This document shows, one piece after another, positions 8,991 through 31,412 of a stretch of 32,000 nucleotides of DNA. Origin of the DNA: Chryseobacterium ginsenosidimutans (GTDB lineage Bacteria; Bacteroidota; Bacteroidia; Flavobacteriales; Weeksellaceae); the NCBI RefSeq assembly GCF_024807225.1, contig NZ_JANUCO010000001.1, positions 1,471,276 through 1,503,275 on the forward strand, written 5' to 3'. Within the stretch, counting starts at the first letter, position 1; each line of letters begins with the position of its first letter. The notes beneath the pieces were generated by a model. That model did not search any database, had not been told where the DNA came from, and saw nothing but the letters and a program-made list of their open reading frames with translations. A program made the position numbers and the translations under genes.

Positions 8991-9168
8991 TTTAATATCG
9001 ATTTGGTGTAGAATAATTAGAATTCCGGGACTAAATTATGAAAATATAGCGAAAGTGAAAATTAATCTTAAATTAATTAAAAGTATGGTGTTATTTCCTT
9101 AAAAATCGTAAATTTTGTGCATAAATTATTTTTTTATAATTTCACAGACCCAAACAAATCACAAACAT

Positions 9169-9705
9169 ATGTCTTCGAACAGGGAGAAAAAACTAAACAA
9201 AACGGACGTCAGAGTAGGCATTTGGAAATTTATTCTATCGTTTATCGCATTATCAGGTGTTGCTTTCATCTGTGTGTTCTTCTTTTTCAAAAGTTATGAT
9301 ATACAGAGAGAAGGAATTAAAAAACAAGCAGATGACTACCGCGAACTGCTTACCAGAAGCGACTTACTGAGAACTCATGTAGACAGCATCATGTACCGGA
9401 TGGATCAGCTTGATATCAGCAAGGTGGACAATGATATTTTTCTTAGGAATTATATCATGGATAACGTGCGGGATGCCAAAAATATCATGGGAAAAGATAG
9501 TGCAGATAATTTTAAACATTATTCGATCTTAATGAAACAGATTGAGCCGATGCTGGCTTTAAAAAATCAAATTATTAATATTTCTTACAAAGAACAGACT
9601 GCTCTGAGGAATTTGAGCGAGTGCAGAGGAAGAGTAGGAGTGGCAAACGACGAATTGAGGGTAGATCCTACAAGAAAATTCTCAGGAAGCAGACGTAGAA
9701 GATAA
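9169..9705 (+). CDS. Single-pass inner-membrane protein, candidate T6SS-iii membrane-complex subunit (TssN/O/P/Q class, not resolved)
   Basis: The track ORF starts at TTG 9115; the first ATG (9169, MSSNREKK...) is preferred. One TM helix (WKFILSFIALSGVAFICVFFFF) followed by a coiled-coil-like region. First gene of an operon ending in a TssR-like gene. Confidence 0.6.
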   Translation: MSSNREKKLNKTDVRVGIWKFILSFIALSGVAFICVFFFFKSYDIQREGIKKQADDYRELLTRSDLLRTHVDSIMYRMDQLDISKVDNDIFLRNYIMDNVRDAKNIMGKDSADNFKHYSILMKQIEPMLALKNQIINISYKEQTALRNLSECRGRVGVANDELRVDPTRKFSGSRRRR

Positions 9706-9716
9706 AAACGAAAATT

Positions 9717-10244
9717 ATGCAGGAACAAATCACACTATCAAAAAAAGAAAGGCATTATCAGTTTTTATATTTGATTTTAATGCTTTTGGCGGCACTTCTA
9801 TTTTTAGGAATTATATTTTTAAAAGGATTTGAATCACCGTTTTCCGATGAAGACATGATTTCTGTTCAGAATCTTGAAGAAAAAGCAAAATTCGATCAGA
9901 AACAGAGATATTCTTACAAAACGTTAGACAGTACATTTTCAATGATTAATAAGCTTACGGACGAAACACCGGAGCCTTTTGTGGAAAACAATATCATGTA
10001 CGGAATCAACGATGTCGCTAATTATTTCCAAAACGGAGACAATATTTCCGACATCAGAAAAGATGCTTATCCGCAGATCGCGAAATTTTACAAAATGTAC
10101 TTCAACGACAAGAAAATTATTTCAAGCAAAACAGAAAATATTAAAAGTTTTACAAAACAGTTTGAAGAATGCTCAATCGGTTTTAAAGAAAAGAAAAGCC
10201 AGCTTTTCCAGCGTGAAACAGCGTTGAAATCTAGAACCCAGTAA
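9717..10244 (+). CDS. Single-pass membrane protein, candidate T6SS-iii membrane-complex subunit
   Basis: 175 aa. One TM helix (FLYLILMLLAALLFLGIIFL). Starts 11 nt after the previous stop. Confidence 0.6.
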   Translation: MQEQITLSKKERHYQFLYLILMLLAALLFLGIIFLKGFESPFSDEDMISVQNLEEKAKFDQKQRYSYKTLDSTFSMINKLTDETPEPFVENNIMYGINDVANYFQNGDNISDIRKDAYPQIAKFYKMYFNDKKIISSKTENIKSFTKQFEECSIGFKEKKSQLFQRETALKSRTQ

Positions 10245-13750: not shown

Positions 13751-14254
13751 ATGTCACAGCAATCATCACCTCATGATGGCAAATATTTTGTTATCCAGAA
13801 AGGTAAAGCCCAGTGCAATCAGGGTGATAAATTCCCACAATATAAAGTTACTTCACATCAGAAACATTTTTGGAATGATTCTGATGGAAACGCAGATTTT
13901 CTTGGTGTCACCGAAGACGACCTTCAGTTTACTCCTCCCGGTCCAAGTTTCGGACAATGCAAATTGAAGCCTACTTCCGGCGGATATTTACCATGTTCTT
14001 ACGCTCCTGCCGGAAAATGGCAGAAAACCTATGACAAAGTAAAGATCATGGGTAAAAAGATTGTAACAGAGCTTTCTGAACTGCAATGTACCATCGGTGG
14101 AAAAATTACGATCAATGATCACGGACAGCGCGGACAAATGAGCAAAAAAAACGTGAAGAATGCCGACAATAAAACGGTACAGCACATCAATCCGCTGGTG
14201 AAAATGCAGGACTTCAAAGAGACGGTCTTGGAAAGTGAATTAGACGCTTATTAA
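13751..14254 (+). CDS. PAAR-like DUF4280-domain protein (T6SS spike tip/adaptor)
   Basis: 167 aa. DUF4280 pattern present: KGKAQCNQG ... SFGQCKLKP...YLPCSYAPAGKWQ...VKIMGKKIVTELSELQCTIGGKITINDHGQ. Confidence 0.75.
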   Translation: MSQQSSPHDGKYFVIQKGKAQCNQGDKFPQYKVTSHQKHFWNDSDGNADFLGVTEDDLQFTPPGPSFGQCKLKPTSGGYLPCSYAPAGKWQKTYDKVKIMGKKIVTELSELQCTIGGKITINDHGQRGQMSKKNVKNADNKTVQHINPLVKMQDFKETVLESELDAY

Positions 14255-14272
14255 CTGTAAACGCTTTCGATT

Positions 14273-16648
14273 ATGTCAAAAATAGGAGTTGCAAAAATTG
14301 CCGGGAATCCTTCACCAAAAATAGGAGAGAAAACGGTATACGCTGTTACAGATTGGTATCCTTCAACTCCTGCGAGTGAAAGAAATCCGGCTTTGGTTAC
14401 TTGGGAATTGTTTAAAAAACGTTCCAACGGAAGTTTTACCACCACCAATATCAAAAAAATAGGTGACGGAAATTTTACGTTCGGAGAAGTGGCTCTTAAA
14501 AATACCTACCGTTTGGAAGCTTACCTTCATGAGCCGGAAGGAAAAGGTTCTACAACAATTGATATCACTCCGCAATCAATAGAAATTCCAAAAATTAATA
14601 AGGTTGAATTACGCTATGTTGATGATTCTCCGGGAACGGTTTTCAGTTATACCGAAAAAATGATTGCTAAAGCTCAGTGCGTAAATCTTACAGGCGAAAA
14701 ATTGACTTTTACACTTTGGGAAGATGATGCAAAAGGCGAAGATCATAATGCCAATAATTTATTTGTCGACAGTAAAGAAGGCATTGTAGACAGAACCGGA
14801 AATGCAACCGCTGAATTTGTTTTAACAAAAGCTTTAATGCAGAAAGCGGCAAAAGGAGAAAGAGATCCTAAAGAACTGGAATTTTACGTAACAGTAGAAT
14901 ATTATAAAAATAAAAAACATGCTACAGCTAATGTAGATGTTAAAAATCCGGATTATAAAGAGCCTGTACAGCAACCGAAACCTGCTGCAACACCGCCCAA
15001 AAGCAGTACTCCTGCTCAACCTTCCAAAACTCCCCCTAAAGCAAACGGTTCCCCCGCTGCTTCTAAACCTGCCTCCCAAAAAGAAGAAAAAGGGATTATG
15101 GATAAAGCTGCAGAATGGTGGGATGAGCTTTGGGATTGGGGAGAATCTAAGGGTACCGTAAAGCCTGAGAAAAAACCGACGGTGCAGAAACCGGAGGGGA
15201 AGACTGTAAGTCAGGTTGGCGGAACAAAAAAAGAAATATTCGAAAAAGTAGTAGGCTTAGGAAAAGAAGCTGTTATCTATATTTCAAGTGAAATTGCAAC
15301 TGAAATAAAGGTTGATAAAGCTGGCAAAATAACTTCTCATCCTGACTACGGTGGATATAATGGAATGACCGAATATAAAGAAGGAGATAAATTATATGCC
15401 AAGAAGCTTCCAAACGGGAAAAGTGCCTTTCCTCTTTATAAAATGTATATTTATAGAGGGAATAAAGTAGGAGAAGCAGTAAAAAAATTAAAACAGGATC
15501 TTGAATTTAAAACTCACGAAAATGCAGAATCTACAGTTTTAACGGTTGCAAGACACGCGCAAACCAATAATAAAGATTATGGTAAAAGTGGTCCACTACC
15601 GCCAAATACTATGACCACATTATATCGTGTAAGGTATATGCAAGCTTGGAATCATGCGAACAAAGAAAGTTTCAGATATAGGATTGTAAGTGATAATACT
15701 TCCAATTTAAAACCTGTAAAAGAATTGGCAAAAGAAGTTTCCAGTGGTGCAATGGCACTCGGCAGTAGAGGCTCAATTTCTCTTGACCCTTGGAGATCTT
15801 CTGGTTTGATAGGTTGTGTGGGAATAAGAAACTCTGATGGTGAAACACATTCAAGTTGTGCAAAAGAATATCCTAACCAAGATAAAGTAAACTATAAATT
15901 CATCTACCATGCTCTAAATAATTATTTAGAAACCGTAATTCCAGAACTTACAGGAGTGTATGGCAGAAGAGGTTATTCTAGTAGTGGAACAGTTGATGTA
16001 GCAGCTTCGGAGTTTAAGGAAGAGGTGAAAGTCTTTGTTTTAGTAGATCCACTTCCAGAATTGAGTGCTTGTAAATTAAACCTTAAAAAAGATGGCAGAG
16101 AAGAGTTTTACAATGAGTTTGGAAAAGCTGCAATAGATCTTGTAGGAAGTAAAGGAAAATCGAATAAATTCAAAGGACTTTATATGGTTGCACAAAGAAG
16201 ACAGGAAAATGGCTTCAAATTAGCTGTACCCAATAATAACCCAATGAATATAAAAGGTAAAGGTGACCTTGGTTCATCTCCTTTAAAAACGCATGAATAT
16301 GAAGATGGAAAAAAAATTAATATTACAGATGGTTTTGCTAATTTCTCTACTGTAGAAAAAGGATTTGAAGGATATTTGGGGCTTTTGAATAAAAATTATA
16401 ATGAGGCTTACAATGCAATTCTGGATGATTCAAAAACTATTGATGACTTTTTAGTAGGTATGCAGGATAAAGGGAAATTAGGAGCTTATGCCACAGATCC
16501 CAATTATAAAACATTAATTAAGGGTATTTTCAATGGAGTAATTAAAGATTATAAGGAGATTTTAAATTATAAACTATGTCGCGAAAAGAAAGAAGAAGAA
16601 AAAAATAAGATTAAAAAAGATATTGAACTTCTTAATAAACTTAAATAA
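14273..16648 (+). CDS. Multidomain T6SS effector candidate: N-terminal delivery region, Pro-rich linker, unassigned central domain, C-terminal glucosaminidase (PF01832-like) peptidoglycan hydrolase domain
   Basis: 791 aa, starting 18 nt after the PAAR-like gene. Linker PVQQPKPAATPPKSSTPAQPSKTPPKANGSPAASKPAS. The C-terminus (VAQRRQENGF...NNNPMNIKGKG...FANFSTVEKGFEGYLGLL...GAYATDPNYKTLIKGI) tracks the glucosaminidase consensus (AQ..lESGwG...NlFGIKG...F..Y.s...s..dY..LL...gYATDp.Y...l..ii). Confidence 0.75.
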   Translation: MSKIGVAKIAGNPSPKIGEKTVYAVTDWYPSTPASERNPALVTWELFKKRSNGSFTTTNIKKIGDGNFTFGEVALKNTYRLEAYLHEPEGKGSTTIDITPQSIEIPKINKVELRYVDDSPGTVFSYTEKMIAKAQCVNLTGEKLTFTLWEDDAKGEDHNANNLFVDSKEGIVDRTGNATAEFVLTKALMQKAAKGERDPKELEFYVTVEYYKNKKHATANVDVKNPDYKEPVQQPKPAATPPKSSTPAQPSKTPPKANGSPAASKPASQKEEKGIMDKAAEWWDELWDWGESKGTVKPEKKPTVQKPEGKTVSQVGGTKKEIFEKVVGLGKEAVIYISSEIATEIKVDKAGKITSHPDYGGYNGMTEYKEGDKLYAKKLPNGKSAFPLYKMYIYRGNKVGEAVKKLKQDLEFKTHENAESTVLTVARHAQTNNKDYGKSGPLPPNTMTTLYRVRYMQAWNHANKESFRYRIVSDNTSNLKPVKELAKEVSSGAMALGSRGSISLDPWRSSGLIGCVGIRNSDGETHSSCAKEYPNQDKVNYKFIYHALNNYLETVIPELTGVYGRRGYSSSGTVDVAASEFKEEVKVFVLVDPLPELSACKLNLKKDGREEFYNEFGKAAIDLVGSKGKSNKFKGLYMVAQRRQENGFKLAVPNNNPMNIKGKGDLGSSPLKTHEYEDGKKINITDGFANFSTVEKGFEGYLGLLNKNYNEAYNAILDDSKTIDDFLVGMQDKGKLGAYATDPNYKTLIKGIFNGVIKDYKEILNYKLCREKKEEEKNKIKKDIELLNKLK

Positions 16649-26114: not shown

Positions 26115-28052
26115 ATGAAAACAGAATCACAAAATATACTAAAAAGCCCTTCATTCCGTCCATCTCAGAATGCCGACGGAATCTCGGAAAATCAACATGC
26201 CGGAATCAACAGATTGGTAAAACTTTCTTTGGTTATTGAAGGAAAAGTAATCAAGTATTACAAACATTTTAAACTGACTCAAAGCTCAAGGCGACACCAT
26301 GAATTCAGTCTTGCGTTGGCTCATGATGCTTTGGGAGACCGACAAACTCACACGTTGGAGGAAGCGAATAAATTCCTTGGAAAACGTCTGACTGTCGTAA
26401 TTTCTTATAAAGATATTGAAAGCAGTCCCGAAAGAACTTTTGTGGGAGTCATCACCGGAGTAGGATTCAGTCAGGAAAAAATGAGTCTCGGAAATATTGT
26501 TTTAACAGGATACAGTCCTACTATTTTGCTGGATGGAGCTCCTCATATTCAAAGTTTTGGAGGCGGATCGCCTGTCAATATGGGAATTATTGCCAATGAA
26601 GTCATTAAACAAGGTCTTGATTCCAGTCGTTTCGACGTGAGAGTTGATACGAATGATTATTCTCAGATTATTTACAGCAGCCAATACGACGAAACACATT
26701 ACAATTATCTGGCGAGAATGGCTGAAGCGTATGGCGAACAGTTTTATTATGATGGTGAAGTGCTGCATTTCGGAAAGCTTCCGCAACAGAATAAACCTAT
26801 TAAATTAACCTACGGAAGCAGCGCAAACGATATTAAAGTTGAATTAAAAGCTGTCCATACAAAACCACAATTTTACGGCTACAACAGCAATAAAAATGAA
26901 AAACTAACATCGGCGGAAACTCCTGTTCAGCATGTGGGAGACTTAGCAAAAACGGCGTATGCCCACAATGATAAAATTTATAAAACTCCGGCTTTACAAG
27001 TCGCACCGATAAAAGCATCTACGCATCTTGATGTAGAATATTCTCAAAAAAGCACATCTGGAAGTGAAGCGGTGAATGTATTTTTATTATCAGGAAATAC
27101 AACAGTTCCGTTTTTGCATCCGGGTTGTGTGGTAGATGTTCAGATGCGAAAAGTAGATACCAACGAATCTTCTTATTTTACAAGAATCATGGTGACGGAA
27201 GTTACTCATGAGATCGATACGATTGGTCATTACACCGGAAGTTTTGAAGGGATTGCTTCAGACACCGGATTTTTACCGAAACCGGAATTTAAAACTCCCA
27301 AAGCGGAACCACAGATTGCAACGGTAATTTCCAATGCAGATCCGGAAGGTCAGGGAAGAATTCAGGTAAGATTTGACTGGCAGACCAATGATACGACACA
27401 TTTTATCAGAATGATGAGTCCTGATGCGGGAGGAACAGATCAGGTGAACCAAAACAGAGGATACGTCGCGATTCCAGAAATCGGAGATCAGGTGATGGTG
27501 AATTTCGTTCACAGTCATCCCGACAGACCTTTCGTGATGGGCGGAATGTTCCACGGAGGAATCGGTCTTGGCGGCGGAATGGATAACAGAGTAAAATCTA
27601 TCCAAACAAGAAGCGGTCACAGAGTGATTTTTACGGAAGATGAAAGTATCATTATCACCGATAAATCAGGAAACGAAATACATTTAGATACAACAGGAAG
27701 CAACATTACTATTACCGCTCCGGAAACTATGACCTTGAATTGTAGGAATATGAATATCAATGTTGGAGAAAATATGACAACCAACGTTGGTGTAAATAAA
27801 TCTGATACTATTCTGGCAAATCATACTGAAAGTGTGGGTGCAATGAAAATGACTTCTGTTCTAGGTGATACAAGTATGTTTATTACAGGAAAACTGACTG
27901 AAATGATTGAAGGAGATGTGCATAGTGAAACGAAAAAAGAGAGAGTAGAGCTATCACATGATGATATTCAGTTTTCATCAAATAAAAGTATTAACAAAAA
28001 TGCTCAATTGGAGATAAAGAATAATAGCGGAGAAATTAGTAAAAACCATTAA
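26115..28052 (+). CDS. vgrG: T6SS spike protein VgrG (TssI)
   Basis: 645 aa. gp27-like N-terminal half, gp5 OB-fold motif (EGQGRIQVRFDWQ...YVAIPEIGDQVMVNFVHSHPDRPFVMG), C-terminal beta-helix repeats. Confidence 0.9.
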   Translation: MKTESQNILKSPSFRPSQNADGISENQHAGINRLVKLSLVIEGKVIKYYKHFKLTQSSRRHHEFSLALAHDALGDRQTHTLEEANKFLGKRLTVVISYKDIESSPERTFVGVITGVGFSQEKMSLGNIVLTGYSPTILLDGAPHIQSFGGGSPVNMGIIANEVIKQGLDSSRFDVRVDTNDYSQIIYSSQYDETHYNYLARMAEAYGEQFYYDGEVLHFGKLPQQNKPIKLTYGSSANDIKVELKAVHTKPQFYGYNSNKNEKLTSAETPVQHVGDLAKTAYAHNDKIYKTPALQVAPIKASTHLDVEYSQKSTSGSEAVNVFLLSGNTTVPFLHPGCVVDVQMRKVDTNESSYFTRIMVTEVTHEIDTIGHYTGSFEGIASDTGFLPKPEFKTPKAEPQIATVISNADPEGQGRIQVRFDWQTNDTTHFIRMMSPDAGGTDQVNQNRGYVAIPEIGDQVMVNFVHSHPDRPFVMGGMFHGGIGLGGGMDNRVKSIQTRSGHRVIFTEDESIIITDKSGNEIHLDTTGSNITITAPETMTLNCRNMNINVGENMTTNVGVNKSDTILANHTESVGAMKMTSVLGDTSMFITGKLTEMIEGDVHSETKKERVELSHDDIQFSSNKSINKNAQLEIKNNSGEISKNH

Positions 28053-28054
28053 TT

Positions 28055-29551
28055 ATGTCGCGAACAAGAATTATTAAAGGTAAGTACATTAAAACAGTTG
28101 GTGAAAATTATAATATAACATCAGAAGGAAATATTTTTTCTACTGCAGGATCTCAAGTGCAGGAAAAAGGTGTTGATAATGGTGTTCAGTATGGGAATTT
28201 TGAAAGATTGGGAAGTAATATAAATGATGATTTTGAAATTTCATTTTCACTTAAGAAAGATGGAATGTATTCAACAGTAGTACCTTTCGGAATACTTGAT
28301 TTTGAAGGGAATTATGAAAATGCCAATTTTGCTTTTAATTATTCTTTATCATTAAGTAATATAGACACTTTAGAATTTAAGATATTAAATGAAGATGGCA
28401 GTACACTTTATGCCATTACCAATTTGCCGGAATTCGTTGTAACGGCTAGAAGGCTTCCATTATTAGCAGAAGATATTATAAAACAAAAACTACAATATAA
28501 TCCTTTAAAACCCGTAAATGTATGGGACTGGAAAAGCGTTTTTGATCCTTACAACATTACATCGGGTGATTATACTAAGATTGGTTCTTATATTATTTTT
28601 TGGGATGGTTTCGATAATAATGGTATATATGACAGCACAAAATTTAATGATAAGAAATTAAAAGCAGTTATCATTGCTAAAAAGAATGGCAAAGAAAAAA
28701 CAAAAGAAGTTGAGTTTTCTACAAATTATGAAAAGGTTGATTGGGTAGATGTAAAGATTGATAAAAATAATAAAAGAATTGATACAACATTACGTGTTAA
28801 CTTAAAAGATGGTGGAGCGGAAGGGTTGGAGTGTTCTTCATATTTAACAGGAGCTAGAGATGAAACACATTGGGAAGAAAGATGTCCTTGGGATAAGATA
28901 CCTAAAAAAGATATTATAGCAGGTAAATCACCTATTAAAGAAAGAACAAGAAGCTTTGGAGACTTGGAAAAGTTAGCTCTTGATGGTCTTAATTATCATT
29001 GGGGACGAAATAAAAATCACGCAGCTGCTAAAGATGTTAAAATTATTGGAGAAGGGTATGAAGTGTACGTGAGTACAATAAATACTCAAGAAAAGTCTAT
29101 GGATGATGTGAGCTTAATTTATAATACTAATGGAGCTTGGAAGAGATCGGGTAATCCTGGTTCTTTTACGTTGAATCCTATTACTTGGATAGGAAATTTA
29201 ATATCTCGAGAAGCTATTTGTTATAATGTGGGCTATTTAAAAGGAAATACATGGAGATATAGAGAAGAAATGAATGAGGATATTGACTTTAAATTTACAT
29301 CTGCTCACGAAATTGGTCACGAAATATTAAAATCTTTTGGAGGAACGGGTTACTCTTATGGTCATAAGGGAAGTGTTAATGTTGTTACTCAATCCATGAA
29401 AGATAATGCACCGGAATATCCTTCTTCTGGGGAAATAGATATTATGCCATATTATCCGAGTGATCCACCTATTTCTATTTATAATAGATATGCTGCAGCA
29501 GAAAAAGATGTTTTAAGTTTAATATGGTTAACTAAAATAAAAATTAATTAA
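28055..29551 (+). CDS. VgrG-linked effector candidate with C-terminal HExxH zinc-metallopeptidase-like domain
   Basis: 498 aa. ATG lies 2 nt after the vgrG stop. N-terminus (IKGKYIKTVGENYNITSEGNIFSTAG) resembles VgrG beta-helix repeats. HEIGH is encoded at 29306-29320 (FTSAHEIGHEILKSFGG), followed by GEIDIMPYY. Confidence 0.7.
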   Translation: MSRTRIIKGKYIKTVGENYNITSEGNIFSTAGSQVQEKGVDNGVQYGNFERLGSNINDDFEISFSLKKDGMYSTVVPFGILDFEGNYENANFAFNYSLSLSNIDTLEFKILNEDGSTLYAITNLPEFVVTARRLPLLAEDIIKQKLQYNPLKPVNVWDWKSVFDPYNITSGDYTKIGSYIIFWDGFDNNGIYDSTKFNDKKLKAVIIAKKNGKEKTKEVEFSTNYEKVDWVDVKIDKNNKRIDTTLRVNLKDGGAEGLECSSYLTGARDETHWEERCPWDKIPKKDIIAGKSPIKERTRSFGDLEKLALDGLNYHWGRNKNHAAAKDVKIIGEGYEVYVSTINTQEKSMDDVSLIYNTNGAWKRSGNPGSFTLNPITWIGNLISREAICYNVGYLKGNTWRYREEMNEDIDFKFTSAHEIGHEILKSFGGTGYSYGHKGSVNVVTQSMKDNAPEYPSSGEIDIMPYYPSDPPISIYNRYAAAEKDVLSLIWLTKIKIN

Positions 29552-29917: not shown

Positions 29918-30252
29918 ATGCAGAATCTGAAAAATATTAAAAAAATAGTTTTTGTAGCCTTATTGTATTCTTGTACAACACCAAAATTTTATCAAGGCTA
30001 TATTTATAGTAATGAAAAACAACCTTTATCTGATGTCAAAGTCTGTGAAATAAATAAAAACAACTGTGCAATTACAGATAGCAAAGGTTTTTTTTAATGC
30101 AGAAAGATAAAAATTCAATTAATGATCTTCTTGTGTTTTTTTAAAATAAGCCTATAGATACAATAAAAACAGTTTGGAGCCAACATGGAGAAAAGCTGAA
30201 CTATTCATTTCTTGAAGGTAAAAAAGATACATTATTTATTGATTTAAAATAA
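29918..30252 (+). pseudogene. Decayed paralog of the 29556..29888 lipoprotein gene
   Basis: MQNLKNIKKIVFVALLYSCTTPKFYQGYIYSNEKQPLSDVKV...TDSKGFF* stops at a T8 run (30088-30095). The frame shifts, an in-frame TAA follows at 30142-30144, then ...HGEKLNYSFLEGKKDTLFIDLK* parallels ...RGVSYAFVEGRNDTLFIDLKK* of the intact copy. Confidence 0.7.
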
Positions 30253-30332: not shown

Positions 30333-31412
30333 ATGGATAAATCCCTAATTAAAATAATAATCTATTTTTTATTCATAACCCAAAACCTCAGCTGCCAAGA
30401 TATGAAACAAAAAAACCTGCCTGAATTTCAAGTAGAGATTTGTTCTCCTACTAATGATTACTTAATAGAATTTGTAAGCGATAAAATTTTTACATTAGAA
30501 GGCAATGGCGCAAGTTTACCTTATGGAGGTACTTCGGGAGAATGGGGCTATTCTGGATCTGGTTGGACTGAGCAACATGGGACACCAATAGGTGCAGATA
30601 TTACCTATTACGCAGGTTATGAAGATACTTTTTATCATTTGAAAGTTGATTTTCCGTTAGATAAGATCAAAGATTATATGGAACGAGCCTACGCACAAGA
30701 TGGAGGAACAACAGAGGATAAAGCCCCTTTGGAAGAATACAAGCGACTGGGTAGAAATGAACGTTTCAGTGCAAATTATAATTCTTATAATAGTTTTTCT
30801 AACTTGGTTTTTGGTTTTGCTCCCAAAGGAATGGTTGTCGTATGGTTGCGTTATGGGATGGGTGTTCGGATAGAATTGGGTCGTTATCAAGCCGAAGTTA
30901 TTAAAGAGGATAAAGAATTGGAGAAAAAACTATTTGCTAATTGGAGTATGAATCGTCAGGAAGTTAGAGCGAGAGATTTTAATCCAGAAGCATCACCTCA
31001 AGAATGGGACAATTATCGGATAAGATATGCTTACAAACCAGCAATTACCGGTGAAAATAAATCACTTCGATTATTTGAAATGAATTTCCACTACTATAAT
31101 GCAGAGTTAGAAATTATGCTTCGCCCTTGGATTAATAATATTCCGGTAAAAGAAAGAGCTATTCCGAAAGAAATTAGCTTCGTTTGGGAAACGGGAAAAG
31201 ATCAGCAATTTGTGGGGAGAGCTTATTTCAGTTGGGAAAAGACCAATGAAGCATTTAAGAAAGCAGGGAAAAATGCAAAATTAGAATTCAAAATAGCATC
31301 GGATAACAGCAATTTTGAAATATTATTAAACAATCAACCTTTAGAATCTGACAGTACAAGAGTTTTCAAAACTGAGAATGAATATAAAGATTCTTATAAT
31401 GATTATAATTAA
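30333..31412 (+). CDS. Lipoprotein of unknown function (second or orphan immunity candidate)
   Basis: 359 aa. Signal with Cys (ITQNLSC). Aromatic-rich globular sequence, no domain recognised with confidence. Confidence 0.6.
   Translation: MDKSLIKIIIYFLFITQNLSCQDMKQKNLPEFQVEICSPTNDYLIEFVSDKIFTLEGNGASLPYGGTSGEWGYSGSGWTEQHGTPIGADITYYAGYEDTFYHLKVDFPLDKIKDYMERAYAQDGGTTEDKAPLEEYKRLGRNERFSANYNSYNSFSNLVFGFAPKGMVVVWLRYGMGVRIELGRYQAEVIKEDKELEKKLFANWSMNRQEVRARDFNPEASPQEWDNYRIRYAYKPAITGENKSLRLFEMNFHYYNAELEIMLRPWINNIPVKERAIPKEISFVWETGKDQQFVGRAYFSWEKTNEAFKKAGKNAKLEFKIASDNSNFEILLNNQPLESDSTRVFKTENEYKDSYNDYN

Follow-up and report, generated by a model that had tools for sequence, protein, structure and literature searches.

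The 32,000-nucleotide stretch of Chryseobacterium ginsenosidimutans DNA analyzed here, referred to below as the window, contains a complete type VI secretion system (T6SS) cluster of the Bacteroidota type (T6SS-iii) and, at 28055-29551 on the forward strand, an open reading frame (ORF) with an ATG start that encodes 498 residues plus a stop codon. We conclude that this gene probably specifies an antibacterial T6SS cargo effector, with the lipoprotein encoded directly downstream as its immunity partner. It shares 100% identity with the C. ginsenosidimutans entry 'hypothetical protein J3D55_001508'. An earlier note on this DNA had placed the start of the ORF 2 nucleotides past the vgrG stop codon and had called the product a VgrG-coupled effector candidate of unassigned family; both statements hold, and nothing passes the thresholds of the Pfam, NCBIfam, or PDB sequence searches. 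The gene is not part of the conserved core gene set of the T6SS cluster. Its adjacency to a spike or tube gene, present in the window, recurs in the loci L001 and L002, where the toxin gene again lies beside vgrG, and the order VgrG-toxin-lipoprotein is shared by Pedobacter and a metagenome-assembled T6SS-iii locus, which lends support to the proposed function.

The effector belongs to a large family of modular build. With the effector as query, 492 matches at E ≤ 0.001 were obtained in a collection of 90%-identity clusters, and a profile search of 50%-identity representatives returned 582 clusters, 210 of them below 1e-30. What the family has in common is the region from about residue 170 to residue 498, reduced to about 280-498 in the remotest members. 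The source names for these relatives are either 'hypothetical protein' or a label derived from a fused domain (DUF4280-containing, 'carboxypeptidase family'). In polymorphic-toxin fashion, the first ~55 residues are swapped in relatives for a PAAR, DUF4280, or Hcp domain (the proteins concerned are listed in the table). One PAAR-fused member, P0261, is encoded between TssE and TssF of a canonical T6SS cluster (VipA/VipB, TssE/F/G). Two longer relatives, P0123 (723 residues) and P0098 (708 residues), have an extra N-terminal domain of about 210 to 245 residues without a Pfam match, possibly a further delivery adaptor; in P0123, this domain precedes the VgrG-linked module described below, so that the module is internal. 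Outside the T6SS, the protein P0177 (L129, 6001-8547) carries the toxin core fused to OmpA-like, PG_binding_1, and CarboxypepD_reg domains and is flanked by a 211-residue CarboxypepD_reg-like gene and an overlapping 158-residue gene. Possibly, this relative has a housekeeping role or is secreted, and has an inhibitor of its own.

The signature of a putative enzyme lies in the C-terminal domain, residues 277-498. The three segments to which the earlier note had drawn attention, HEIGH, GHKG, and GEIDIMPYY, are all present at the positions it gave, the canonical HExxHxxGxxH spacing is absent, as it had pointed out (the sequence runs HEIGHEILKSF), and HExxH and the Met-turn-like M464 and Y466 are essentially invariant. 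Conservation was counted over 112 aligned family members, down to ~30% identity. H418, E419, G421, H422, H437, and Y466 are conserved in all 112; S365, M464, and D485 in 110; D462 in 109; and E460 and Q446 in 107. By our own rough estimate, a chance HExxH is expected in ~1% of proteins of this size. The motifs seen here are more than such a chance occurrence, the six residues named first being invariant throughout. The candidates for a third zinc ligand are all conserved as well (H437, 112/112; E460, 107/112; D462, 109/112). The sequence lacks the extended metzincin motif HExxHxxGxx(H/D): L425 stands where the Gly would be, and F428 takes the place of the His or Asp.

The full-length AlphaFold2 model has a predicted local distance difference test score (pLDDT) of 84.5, and the model of residues 277-498, built with 112 sequences, reaches a pLDDT of 93.8 and a predicted template modeling score of 0.90. 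In this domain model, helix 301-315 is followed by β-strands, helix 375-383, further β-strands up to residue 403, and the HExxH helix 405-435, after which comes an irregular but confidently modeled C-terminal subdomain with helices 473-478 and 483-491. Zincins have a helix/β-sheet unit ahead of the HExxH helix, and the modeled order of elements is compatible with that plan. HExxH lies on a helix in both models, in the middle of a long one (405-429 or 405-435). The third zinc ligand of gluzincins is a Glu on a 'glutamate helix' downstream of HExxH; near-invariant E460 is located 38 residues past H422, in a segment that is nonhelical in both models. For the window effector itself, no Pfam family was reported at E ≤ 10, with Tox-MPTase and other peptidase models included. 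When 59 members were compared with Pfam at the same limit, no above-threshold match fell in the catalytic region, the best peptidase model reaching E 0.0059; the recurrent sub-threshold matches there are to zincin peptidases (Peptidase_M78 in 6/59, Reprolysin_3 in 4/59, Peptidase_M10 in 1/59). We regard it as an HExxH domain that is zinc-hydrolase-like, of unassigned family, and in all likelihood a peptidase. Its M-x-Y is metzincin-like, yet membership in the metzincins, the gluzincins, or the Tpe family is not demonstrable.

The next gene, which had been taken for a lipoprotein gene, indeed encodes a signal peptide with a lipobox Cys at the head of a 110-residue protein, and it starts 4 nucleotides past the effector stop codon. 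Its product would be a small β-domain with weak CarboxypepD_reg-like similarity (PF13715, E 4.6e-4, below the cut-off). Each of the five kinds of T6SS locus examined has lipoprotein genes directly downstream of the toxin, often in arrays of paralogues. The linkage holds in Bacteroidota loci as well as in a canonical (TssB/TssC-type) T6SS cluster and is kept across phyla and delivery modes. When 12 of the small downstream proteins were translated, 11 had a signal peptide and a lipobox Cys, and most carried the pattern YxGYIYD...KGYF of a small CarboxypepD_reg-like β-domain. The coupling of toxin and lipoprotein takes the form of 4-nucleotide gaps, overlaps, and in-frame fusions. This pattern is as expected for a toxin that acts in the periplasm together with its immunity protein. 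Because the downstream lipoproteins recur, we infer that the periplasm is the site of action, in support of the periplasmic target put forward in the earlier note, and the lipoprotein would provide the protection.

In the window, the intact lipoprotein gene is followed by a degraded second copy, in which a 59-residue ORF (MQNLKNIKKIVFVALLYSC...) corresponds to the N-terminal half and the C-terminal half (PIDTIKTVWSQHGEKLNYSFLEGKKDTLFIDLK*, 30151-30252) is found in another frame. This copy is closer to the cognate lipoprotein of the Pedobacter locus (L001a) than to the intact window lipoprotein. Either the decay of an orphan immunity gene or a sequencing frameshift in T-runs may account for it. 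Pedobacter sp. UYP30 itself has an orphan lipoprotein gene (L001, 9230-9577) four genes downstream of the toxin, the product of which is much nearer to the window immunity protein than the cognate Pedobacter lipoprotein is, which suggests a gathering of non-cognate immunity genes. Further along the window, past the immunity genes, a gene at 30333-31412 (+) encodes a 359-residue DUF2931 protein (PF11153, 4.5e-14) with a lipoprotein-like N terminus (…ITQNLSC), which may be another immunity or orphan gene.

At the other end of the effector, the N terminus (MSRTRIIKGKYIKTVGENYNITSEGNIFSTAGSQVQEKG) introduces a module that in the monomer model has a pLDDT of only 44-56, as would suit a segment that takes up its fold only on a partner. 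The suggestion that these residues continue the β-helix of VgrG was not supported at the sequence level: BLASTP of residues 1-55 against the upstream VgrG detected no similarity (E ≥ 56), and an hhalign profile-profile comparison of the module with VgrG C termini gave a weak match at 29% probability. Scanning one genome per species for M-[ST]-R-T-R-I-V-[KQ]-G, written as a degenerate DNA pattern, yielded at least 120 stretches and at least 128 loci (L009-L128 among them), with at least 131 matches. Among the matches listed, nearly all come from Chryseobacterium, Kaistella, Flavobacterium, Epilithonimonas, Niabella, and relatives, with a few obvious chance matches, and the module is confined mainly to Flavobacteriia and relatives. 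In this same set of listed matches, 103 of the 131 are module-like and only 15 of the 131 carry the body of the window toxin; the 87 complete module-bearing ORFs fall into at least 14 unrelated body clusters. Known bodies behind the module are a Tle1-like phospholipase (PF09994) and Ntox44, both above threshold; others are proteins with a canonical HExxHxxGxxH metzincin motif and GxSxG hydrolases. Several loci hold two module-bearing genes, 2-5 kb apart.

The module is also tied to VgrG by position and by co-variation. Among the matches listed, 72 of the 103 module ORFs start 2-53 nucleotides downstream of a VgrG-like ORF, with modes of the gap at 2 and at 11-12 nucleotides, the former being the commonest (28/72). 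Over 56 pairs, divergence of the module follows that of the last 110 VgrG residues (Spearman 0.55; partial 0.55 when controlling for the core) and follows that of the VgrG core much less closely (Spearman 0.23; partial -0.24). Discrete module subtypes are paired with discrete VgrG tails, and the C-terminal ~45 residues of the window VgrG (...LSHDDIQFSSNKSINKNAQLEIKNNSGEISKNH) represent the subtype that pairs with the module of the effector. A profile search for the module in a set of 5.8 billion proteins returned 15 short and uninformative fragments only, and no description of it was found in the searchable literature, which leaves many subscription papers outside. Judged from these sequence patterns, we read the module as a genuine, reusable VgrG-specific loading tag that is apparently undescribed. 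The idea that the effector docks on the spike is thereby strengthened, with strand complementation as a candidate for the physical mode.

A number of observations weigh against the picture of a VgrG-loaded zinc hydrolase that is blocked by a lipoprotein. Scans of the 498-residue protein against Pfam and NCBIfam gave no match to threshold and PHROGs gave nothing usable, and sequence and profile searches of the PDB (E ≤ 10) returned a sole, insignificant match, the AHExGH of CapP (E 1.5-2). Structural comparison of the C-terminal region, proposed in the earlier note as a check and run by us on residues 277-498, started from a confident model, for which Foldseek found no zincin or other neighbor (best E 1.5 in PDB and 1.4 in BFVD). 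The best TM-score was 0.22, to a poxvirus 'putative metalloprotease' at E 7.4. Because a model with a pLDDT of 93.8 is left without a Foldseek neighbor, the zincin fold is putative. In the domain model, the HExxH helix continues unbroken to residue 435, which would place H437 ~20 Å from H422 by an estimate from helix rise; unlike the domain model, the full-length model has the helix broken at residue 430 (G429/G430). An hhalign comparison with 39 module-bearing effectors, some of which have HExxHxxGxxH...IM[SD]Y, gave a probability of 4.9% and was rejected as evidence that the catalytic domain is homologous to these metzincin-motif effectors. The same alignment does superpose HExxH and M-x-Y. 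On the immunity side, the toxin ORFs of P0047, P0065, P0068, P0091, and P0103, five independent clusters, have no stop codon and run in frame into the lipoprotein signal peptide (an example of the junction, with signal peptide and lipobox, is ...WLSKIKILSIYCVFSLLLSCNSKK...); such an ORF is either an unusual toxin-immunity fusion or a case of internal initiation. With respect to the module, its coding sequence and that of the VgrG C terminus are adjacent DNA, and close linkage alone could give co-variation, and family members without the module are still encoded directly after vgrG (L002/L003). No experiments on any family member were found.

Table. Features of the effector locus in the window, and the gene orders and fusions of related loci and proteins
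Feature	Position	Strand	Remarks
vgrG	26115..28052	+	Spike protein, 645 aa; Pfam Phage_base_V 4.6e-17 (passes threshold)
Spacer, 2 nt	28053..28054	+	vgrG TAA at 28050-28052, then 'tt', then effector ATG at 28055
Effector ORF, 498 aa	28055..29551	+	100% identity to J3D55_001508
N-terminal module, residues 1-55	28055..28219	+	MSRTRI[IV]KGxxxK...; weak β-strand periodicity
First β-sandwich, residues ~58-130	28226..28444	+	DFxI...VPxGILDF...YEN; AlphaFold2 pLDDT ~90
Second β-sandwich, residues ~170-276	28562..28882	+	Ig-like/FlgD_ig-like (WDGFDxxxIYDS); AlphaFold2, Foldseek
Toxin core, putative zinc-hydrolase domain, residues 277-498	28883..29548	+	AlphaFold2; part common to all 582 clusters
HEIGH, residues 418-422	29306..29320	+	Putative zinc-binding/catalytic motif; H, E, G, H invariant 112/112
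GHKG, residues 436-439	29360-29371	+	
H437	29363..29365	+	Candidate third zinc ligand, 15 residues past H422; invariant 112/112
GEIDIMPYY, residues 459-467	29429..29455	+	E460/D462 alternative third ligands; M464-x-Y466 Met-turn-like
Lipoprotein, 110 aa	29556..29888	+	Signal peptide + Cys15; start MKILLILFVTFISSC; predicted cognate immunity protein
Degraded second lipoprotein copy	29918..30252	+	59-aa ORF = N-terminal half; C-terminal half in other frame
T6SS-iii cluster content			Two TssO, PKD protein, TssR, DUF4280, Hcp/TssD, ClpV, SLT transglycosylase, then vgrG
L001 (Pedobacter)			VgrG, toxin, 112-aa lipoprotein, then more paralogues
L002/L003 (metagenome, T6SS-iii)			VgrG, toxin without N-terminal module, 118-aa lipoprotein
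L004/L005			PAAR-toxin, 179-aa lipoprotein
L006/L007			PAAR-toxin, two lipoproteins, 129 and 128 aa
L008 (Flavobacterium pectinovorum)			DUF4280-toxin, three lipoproteins
DUF4280 N termini on toxin body			P0056, P0070, P0113, P0120, P0149, P0190, P0212
Hcp/TssD (PF17642) N termini on toxin body			P0114, P0128, P0164
Canonical PAAR N termini on toxin body			P0220, P0234, P0240, P0254, P0261, P0265

Between the module and the toxin core, the effector is predicted to contain two β-sandwich domains. In the first, AlphaFold2 places strands at 61-67, 92-99, 105-111, 117-121, and 127-130, and F60, V76, N89, and F94 are invariant. This domain is missing from more distant members, the matches of which begin near residue 170 or 280. 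The second is immunoglobulin-like (Ig-like): sub-threshold FlgD_ig matches occur in 6/59 members and in P0212, and Foldseek with the full-length model returned generic Ig-like sandwiches only (best E 1.1e-3). A Cys260/Cys277 pair after the second sandwich is kept among close relatives (46/59 and 48/59, respectively).

The surrounding cluster opens with two tandem TssO paralogues of 196 and 175 residues (9115-10244, +). It also contains a second effector module (13751-16648, +), which consists of a DUF4280 (PAAR-like) gene at 13751-14254 followed by a gene for a 791-residue protein with a C-terminal glucosaminidase domain. L002 resembles this arrangement in that a DUF4280 gene and a gene for a 787-residue GH108/PG_binding protein come after the toxin/immunity pair. 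For the VgrG upstream of the effector, matches to Phage_GPD, Gp5_trimer_C, and NCBIfam TIGR03361/TIGR01646 all stay below the curated cut-offs. A scan for promoters and terminators, which is ill suited to Bacteroidota promoters, gave no signal above background.

Gene order, modular build, residue conservation, linkage to lipoproteins, and the sharing and co-variation of the module come directly from the computations; secretion, zinc binding, catalysis, the compartment of action, and neutralization are deduced from them. Taken together, these data suggest the following mechanism. The first ~50 residues, unstructured on their own, would attach the effector to the C-terminal end of the VgrG encoded upstream. 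If so, the toxin would be exported through the T6SS on the spike and not inside the Hcp tube. The two Ig-like β-sandwiches might serve as spacers or as substrate-binding domains. The C-terminal 220 residues would then act as a zinc-dependent hydrolase, in which H418 and H422 may bind the metal and E419 may be the general base. The site might be completed by H437 and/or E460/D462, and M464 and Y466 would presumably pack beneath the metal or beside it. The enzyme would most likely be a peptidase that works in the periplasm of the attacked cell, with peptidoglycan peptides or envelope proteins as possible substrates. In the producer and its kin, the 110-residue lipoprotein, facing the periplasm, would bind the toxin and block it.

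Conceivably, the toxin is more specifically a peptidoglycan hydrolase, a metallo-endopeptidase or amidase acting on stem peptides or cross-links. This refinement of the proposed function is possible, but we hold it to be rather doubtful. The architecture of P0177, with OmpA-like and PG_binding_1 domains ahead of the same core outside the T6SS, suggests that the site of action is the peptidoglycan layer; the candidates for immunity are lipoproteins of the periplasm; and the neighboring effector modules in the window cluster and in L002 are cell-wall glycosidases. To our knowledge, the well-known peptidoglycan metallopeptidases (M23, LAS/M15) lack HExxH, which counts against this refinement. A 2026 preprint describes the 'moon toxin' T6EC11 of Chryseobacterium sp. 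OV279 as a periplasm-only, peptidoglycan-degrading T6SS effector with homologues 'mostly in Flavobacteria and Gammaproteobacteria' (bioRxiv 10.64898/2026.09.28.754971). This taxonomic spread is compatible with that of the window family, to which T6EC11 might belong; the preprint, however, makes no mention of HExxH for T6EC11, though it stresses the motif for T6EC12 (bioRxiv 10.64898/2026.09.28.754971). Moreover, VgrG2b, a characterized periplasmic T6SS metallopeptidase, appears to target lipoproteins and not peptidoglycan (PMC6899460). A different site of action, in the bacterial cytoplasm or on eukaryotic cells, with a lipoprotein unrelated to immunity, seems improbable to us. In its favor, a further new T6SS effector with HExxH, T6EC12, poisons E. 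coli and yeast from within the cytoplasm, but such a site is hard to reconcile with a lipoprotein linkage that is kept across phyla and delivery modes, with arrays of lipoprotein paralogues, and with translational coupling by 4-nucleotide gaps, overlaps, and in-frame fusions.

Two further explanations question the enzyme or the gene itself. The HExxH domain might be non-enzymatic, as a structural or adaptor part of the spike or as a binding or membrane-inserting toxin in which the motif is a structural metal site. The lack of a structural match to any solved hydrolase, the unclear third-ligand geometry, given the two differing models, and the large share of the two β-sandwich domains, half of the protein, would be in line with this. 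We nevertheless consider it unlikely, in view of the Glu of HExxH, which is invariant in 112/112 members down to ~30% identity, as is typical of catalysis and not of a site with a structural role alone. Likewise, PAAR, DUF4280, and Hcp fusions carry the core at their C-terminal end, in the 'toxin' position, and lipoprotein genes always come next, which is the grammar of polymorphic toxins and not that of structural parts, and the gene is not among the conserved core genes of the T6SS cluster. Very improbable, in our estimation, is the notion that the ORF belongs to VgrG as its C-terminal part, an 'evolved VgrG' that has been split or recoded and is made as a fusion by frameshift or readthrough over the 2-nucleotide gap. 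Tight junctions are common elsewhere too, the periodicity of the module is weakly β-helix-like and its profile weakly matches the end of VgrG (29% probability), and metallopeptidase domains fused to VgrG exist, such as that of VgrG2b (PMC6899460). The module, however, always starts with a conserved Met-Ser/Thr-Arg, and the gaps of 2, 3, 5, 10, 11, 12, and up to 53 nucleotides cover all three relative frames, so that no single recoding event fits; a programmed frameshift fusion with VgrG was rejected for this variation in gap length. In addition, none of the 270 family proteins listed is fused to VgrG, and the same body is instead carried in fusions to PAAR, DUF4280, or Hcp.

As a kind, T6SS cargo effectors that come with an immunity lipoprotein in the periplasm are well known. 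What is new here is an unnamed toxin family with a non-canonical signature and without a solved or modeled neighbor, as well as a tag that is apparently undescribed. Far less is understood about the Bacteroidota T6SS-iii than about the T6SSs of proteobacteria, and in the searchable literature we found nothing on how cargo effectors are matched to VgrG in T6SS-iii. With 582 clusters at 50% identity in Bacteroidota-type as well as canonical T6SS loci and an invariant non-canonical signature, the toxin family would add an enzyme class to the antibacterial weapons that target the envelope. A bolder and quite tentative reading is that the effector combines a new zinc-hydrolase family, possibly with a new fold (HExGH-x14-H...ExDxMxY), with an unknown 'address tag' for VgrG loading in T6SS-iii. 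Under this bolder reading, the hydrolase, acting from the periplasm, would possibly damage the cell wall or envelope, a transthyretin-like lipoprotein would block it, and the tag would load cargo onto the matching VgrG C terminus, perhaps with its strands extending the end of the spike. If true, the tag would provide a sequence marker for cataloguing T6SS-iii effectors and a handle for loading foreign cargo. If the toxin is an ordinary divergent metzincin, the finding shrinks to one more effector/immunity pair. For T6SS specialists, we consider the results useful and testable, the tag above all; new T6SS toxin families turn up regularly, which limits the surprise.

Among known systems, the closest in logic is the Tpe/Tpi family, which includes the C-terminal metallopeptidase of VgrG2b with PA0261 in P. 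aeruginosa and Tpe1/Tpi1 in A. baylyi (PMC6899460). Tpe toxins depend on HExxH, are delivered by the VgrG spike, and act in the periplasm, and their immunity proteins are located in the envelope, as a lipoprotein in Enterobacteriaceae (PMC6899460). The window effector would share the combination of an HExxH T6SS toxin carried on the VgrG spike, a periplasmic site of action, and lipoprotein immunity. It differs in being a separate cargo protein, whereas the VgrG2b domain is covalently fused to VgrG, and in showing no detectable similarity in sequence or structure, the PDB searches having returned CapP (E 1.5-2) and no peptidase and the Foldseek PDB list containing no metallopeptidase. Other residues are conserved downstream of HExxH, and the immunity fold is different (CarboxypepD_reg-like). 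The analogy drawn in the earlier note with VgrG-fused metallopeptidases and their lipoprotein immunity proteins stands for the functional logic but not for homology in sequence or by Foldseek, neither of which returned a metallopeptidase.

A likeness to metzincins is apparent in the order of the helical HExxH, the further invariant His, M464-P-Y466 in an irregular C-terminal subdomain, and the C-terminal helix. In the Met-turn of astacins and serralysins, a zinc-binding Tyr comes after the Met (SxMHY / SxMSY), and the M-x-Y spacing of the window family is that of these two groups. In contrast to metzincins, however, the next His in the window sequence (HEIGHEILKSFGGTGYSYGH) is found 15 residues past the second His and not 6, no Pfam metzincin model reaches threshold, the profile comparison stays at 4.9%, and Foldseek gave no match. 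T6EC12 is an HExxH T6SS effector with a 'novel two-domain scaffold', the toxicity of which is lowered by mutations in the motif (bioRxiv 10.64898/2026.09.28.754971). Like the window effector, it is a new HExxH T6SS effector that is unlike known metalloprotease families overall. In T6EC12, HELSH is accompanied by D312 and E341; the protein shows its toxicity in the cytoplasm and in yeast, its predicted loading is into Hcp, and it occurs mostly in Betaproteobacteria (bioRxiv 10.64898/2026.09.28.754971). The window family, in contrast, has HExGH...H...ExDxMxY and is linked to VgrG/PAAR/DUF4280 and to lipoproteins.

The N-terminal module, finally, invites comparison with the elements that mark effectors of proteobacterial T6SSs. 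MIX and FIX are N-terminal marker motifs of such effectors. Another proteobacterial T6SS effector element is prePAAR (PMC7773334). As with these three, a short conserved N-terminal element is joined to many unrelated toxin domains and predicts T6SS effectors. Unlike them, the module of the window effector is ~50 residues long, stands at the start of a gene that begins 2-53 nucleotides past vgrG among the matches listed, and co-varies with the last ~110 residues of VgrG.

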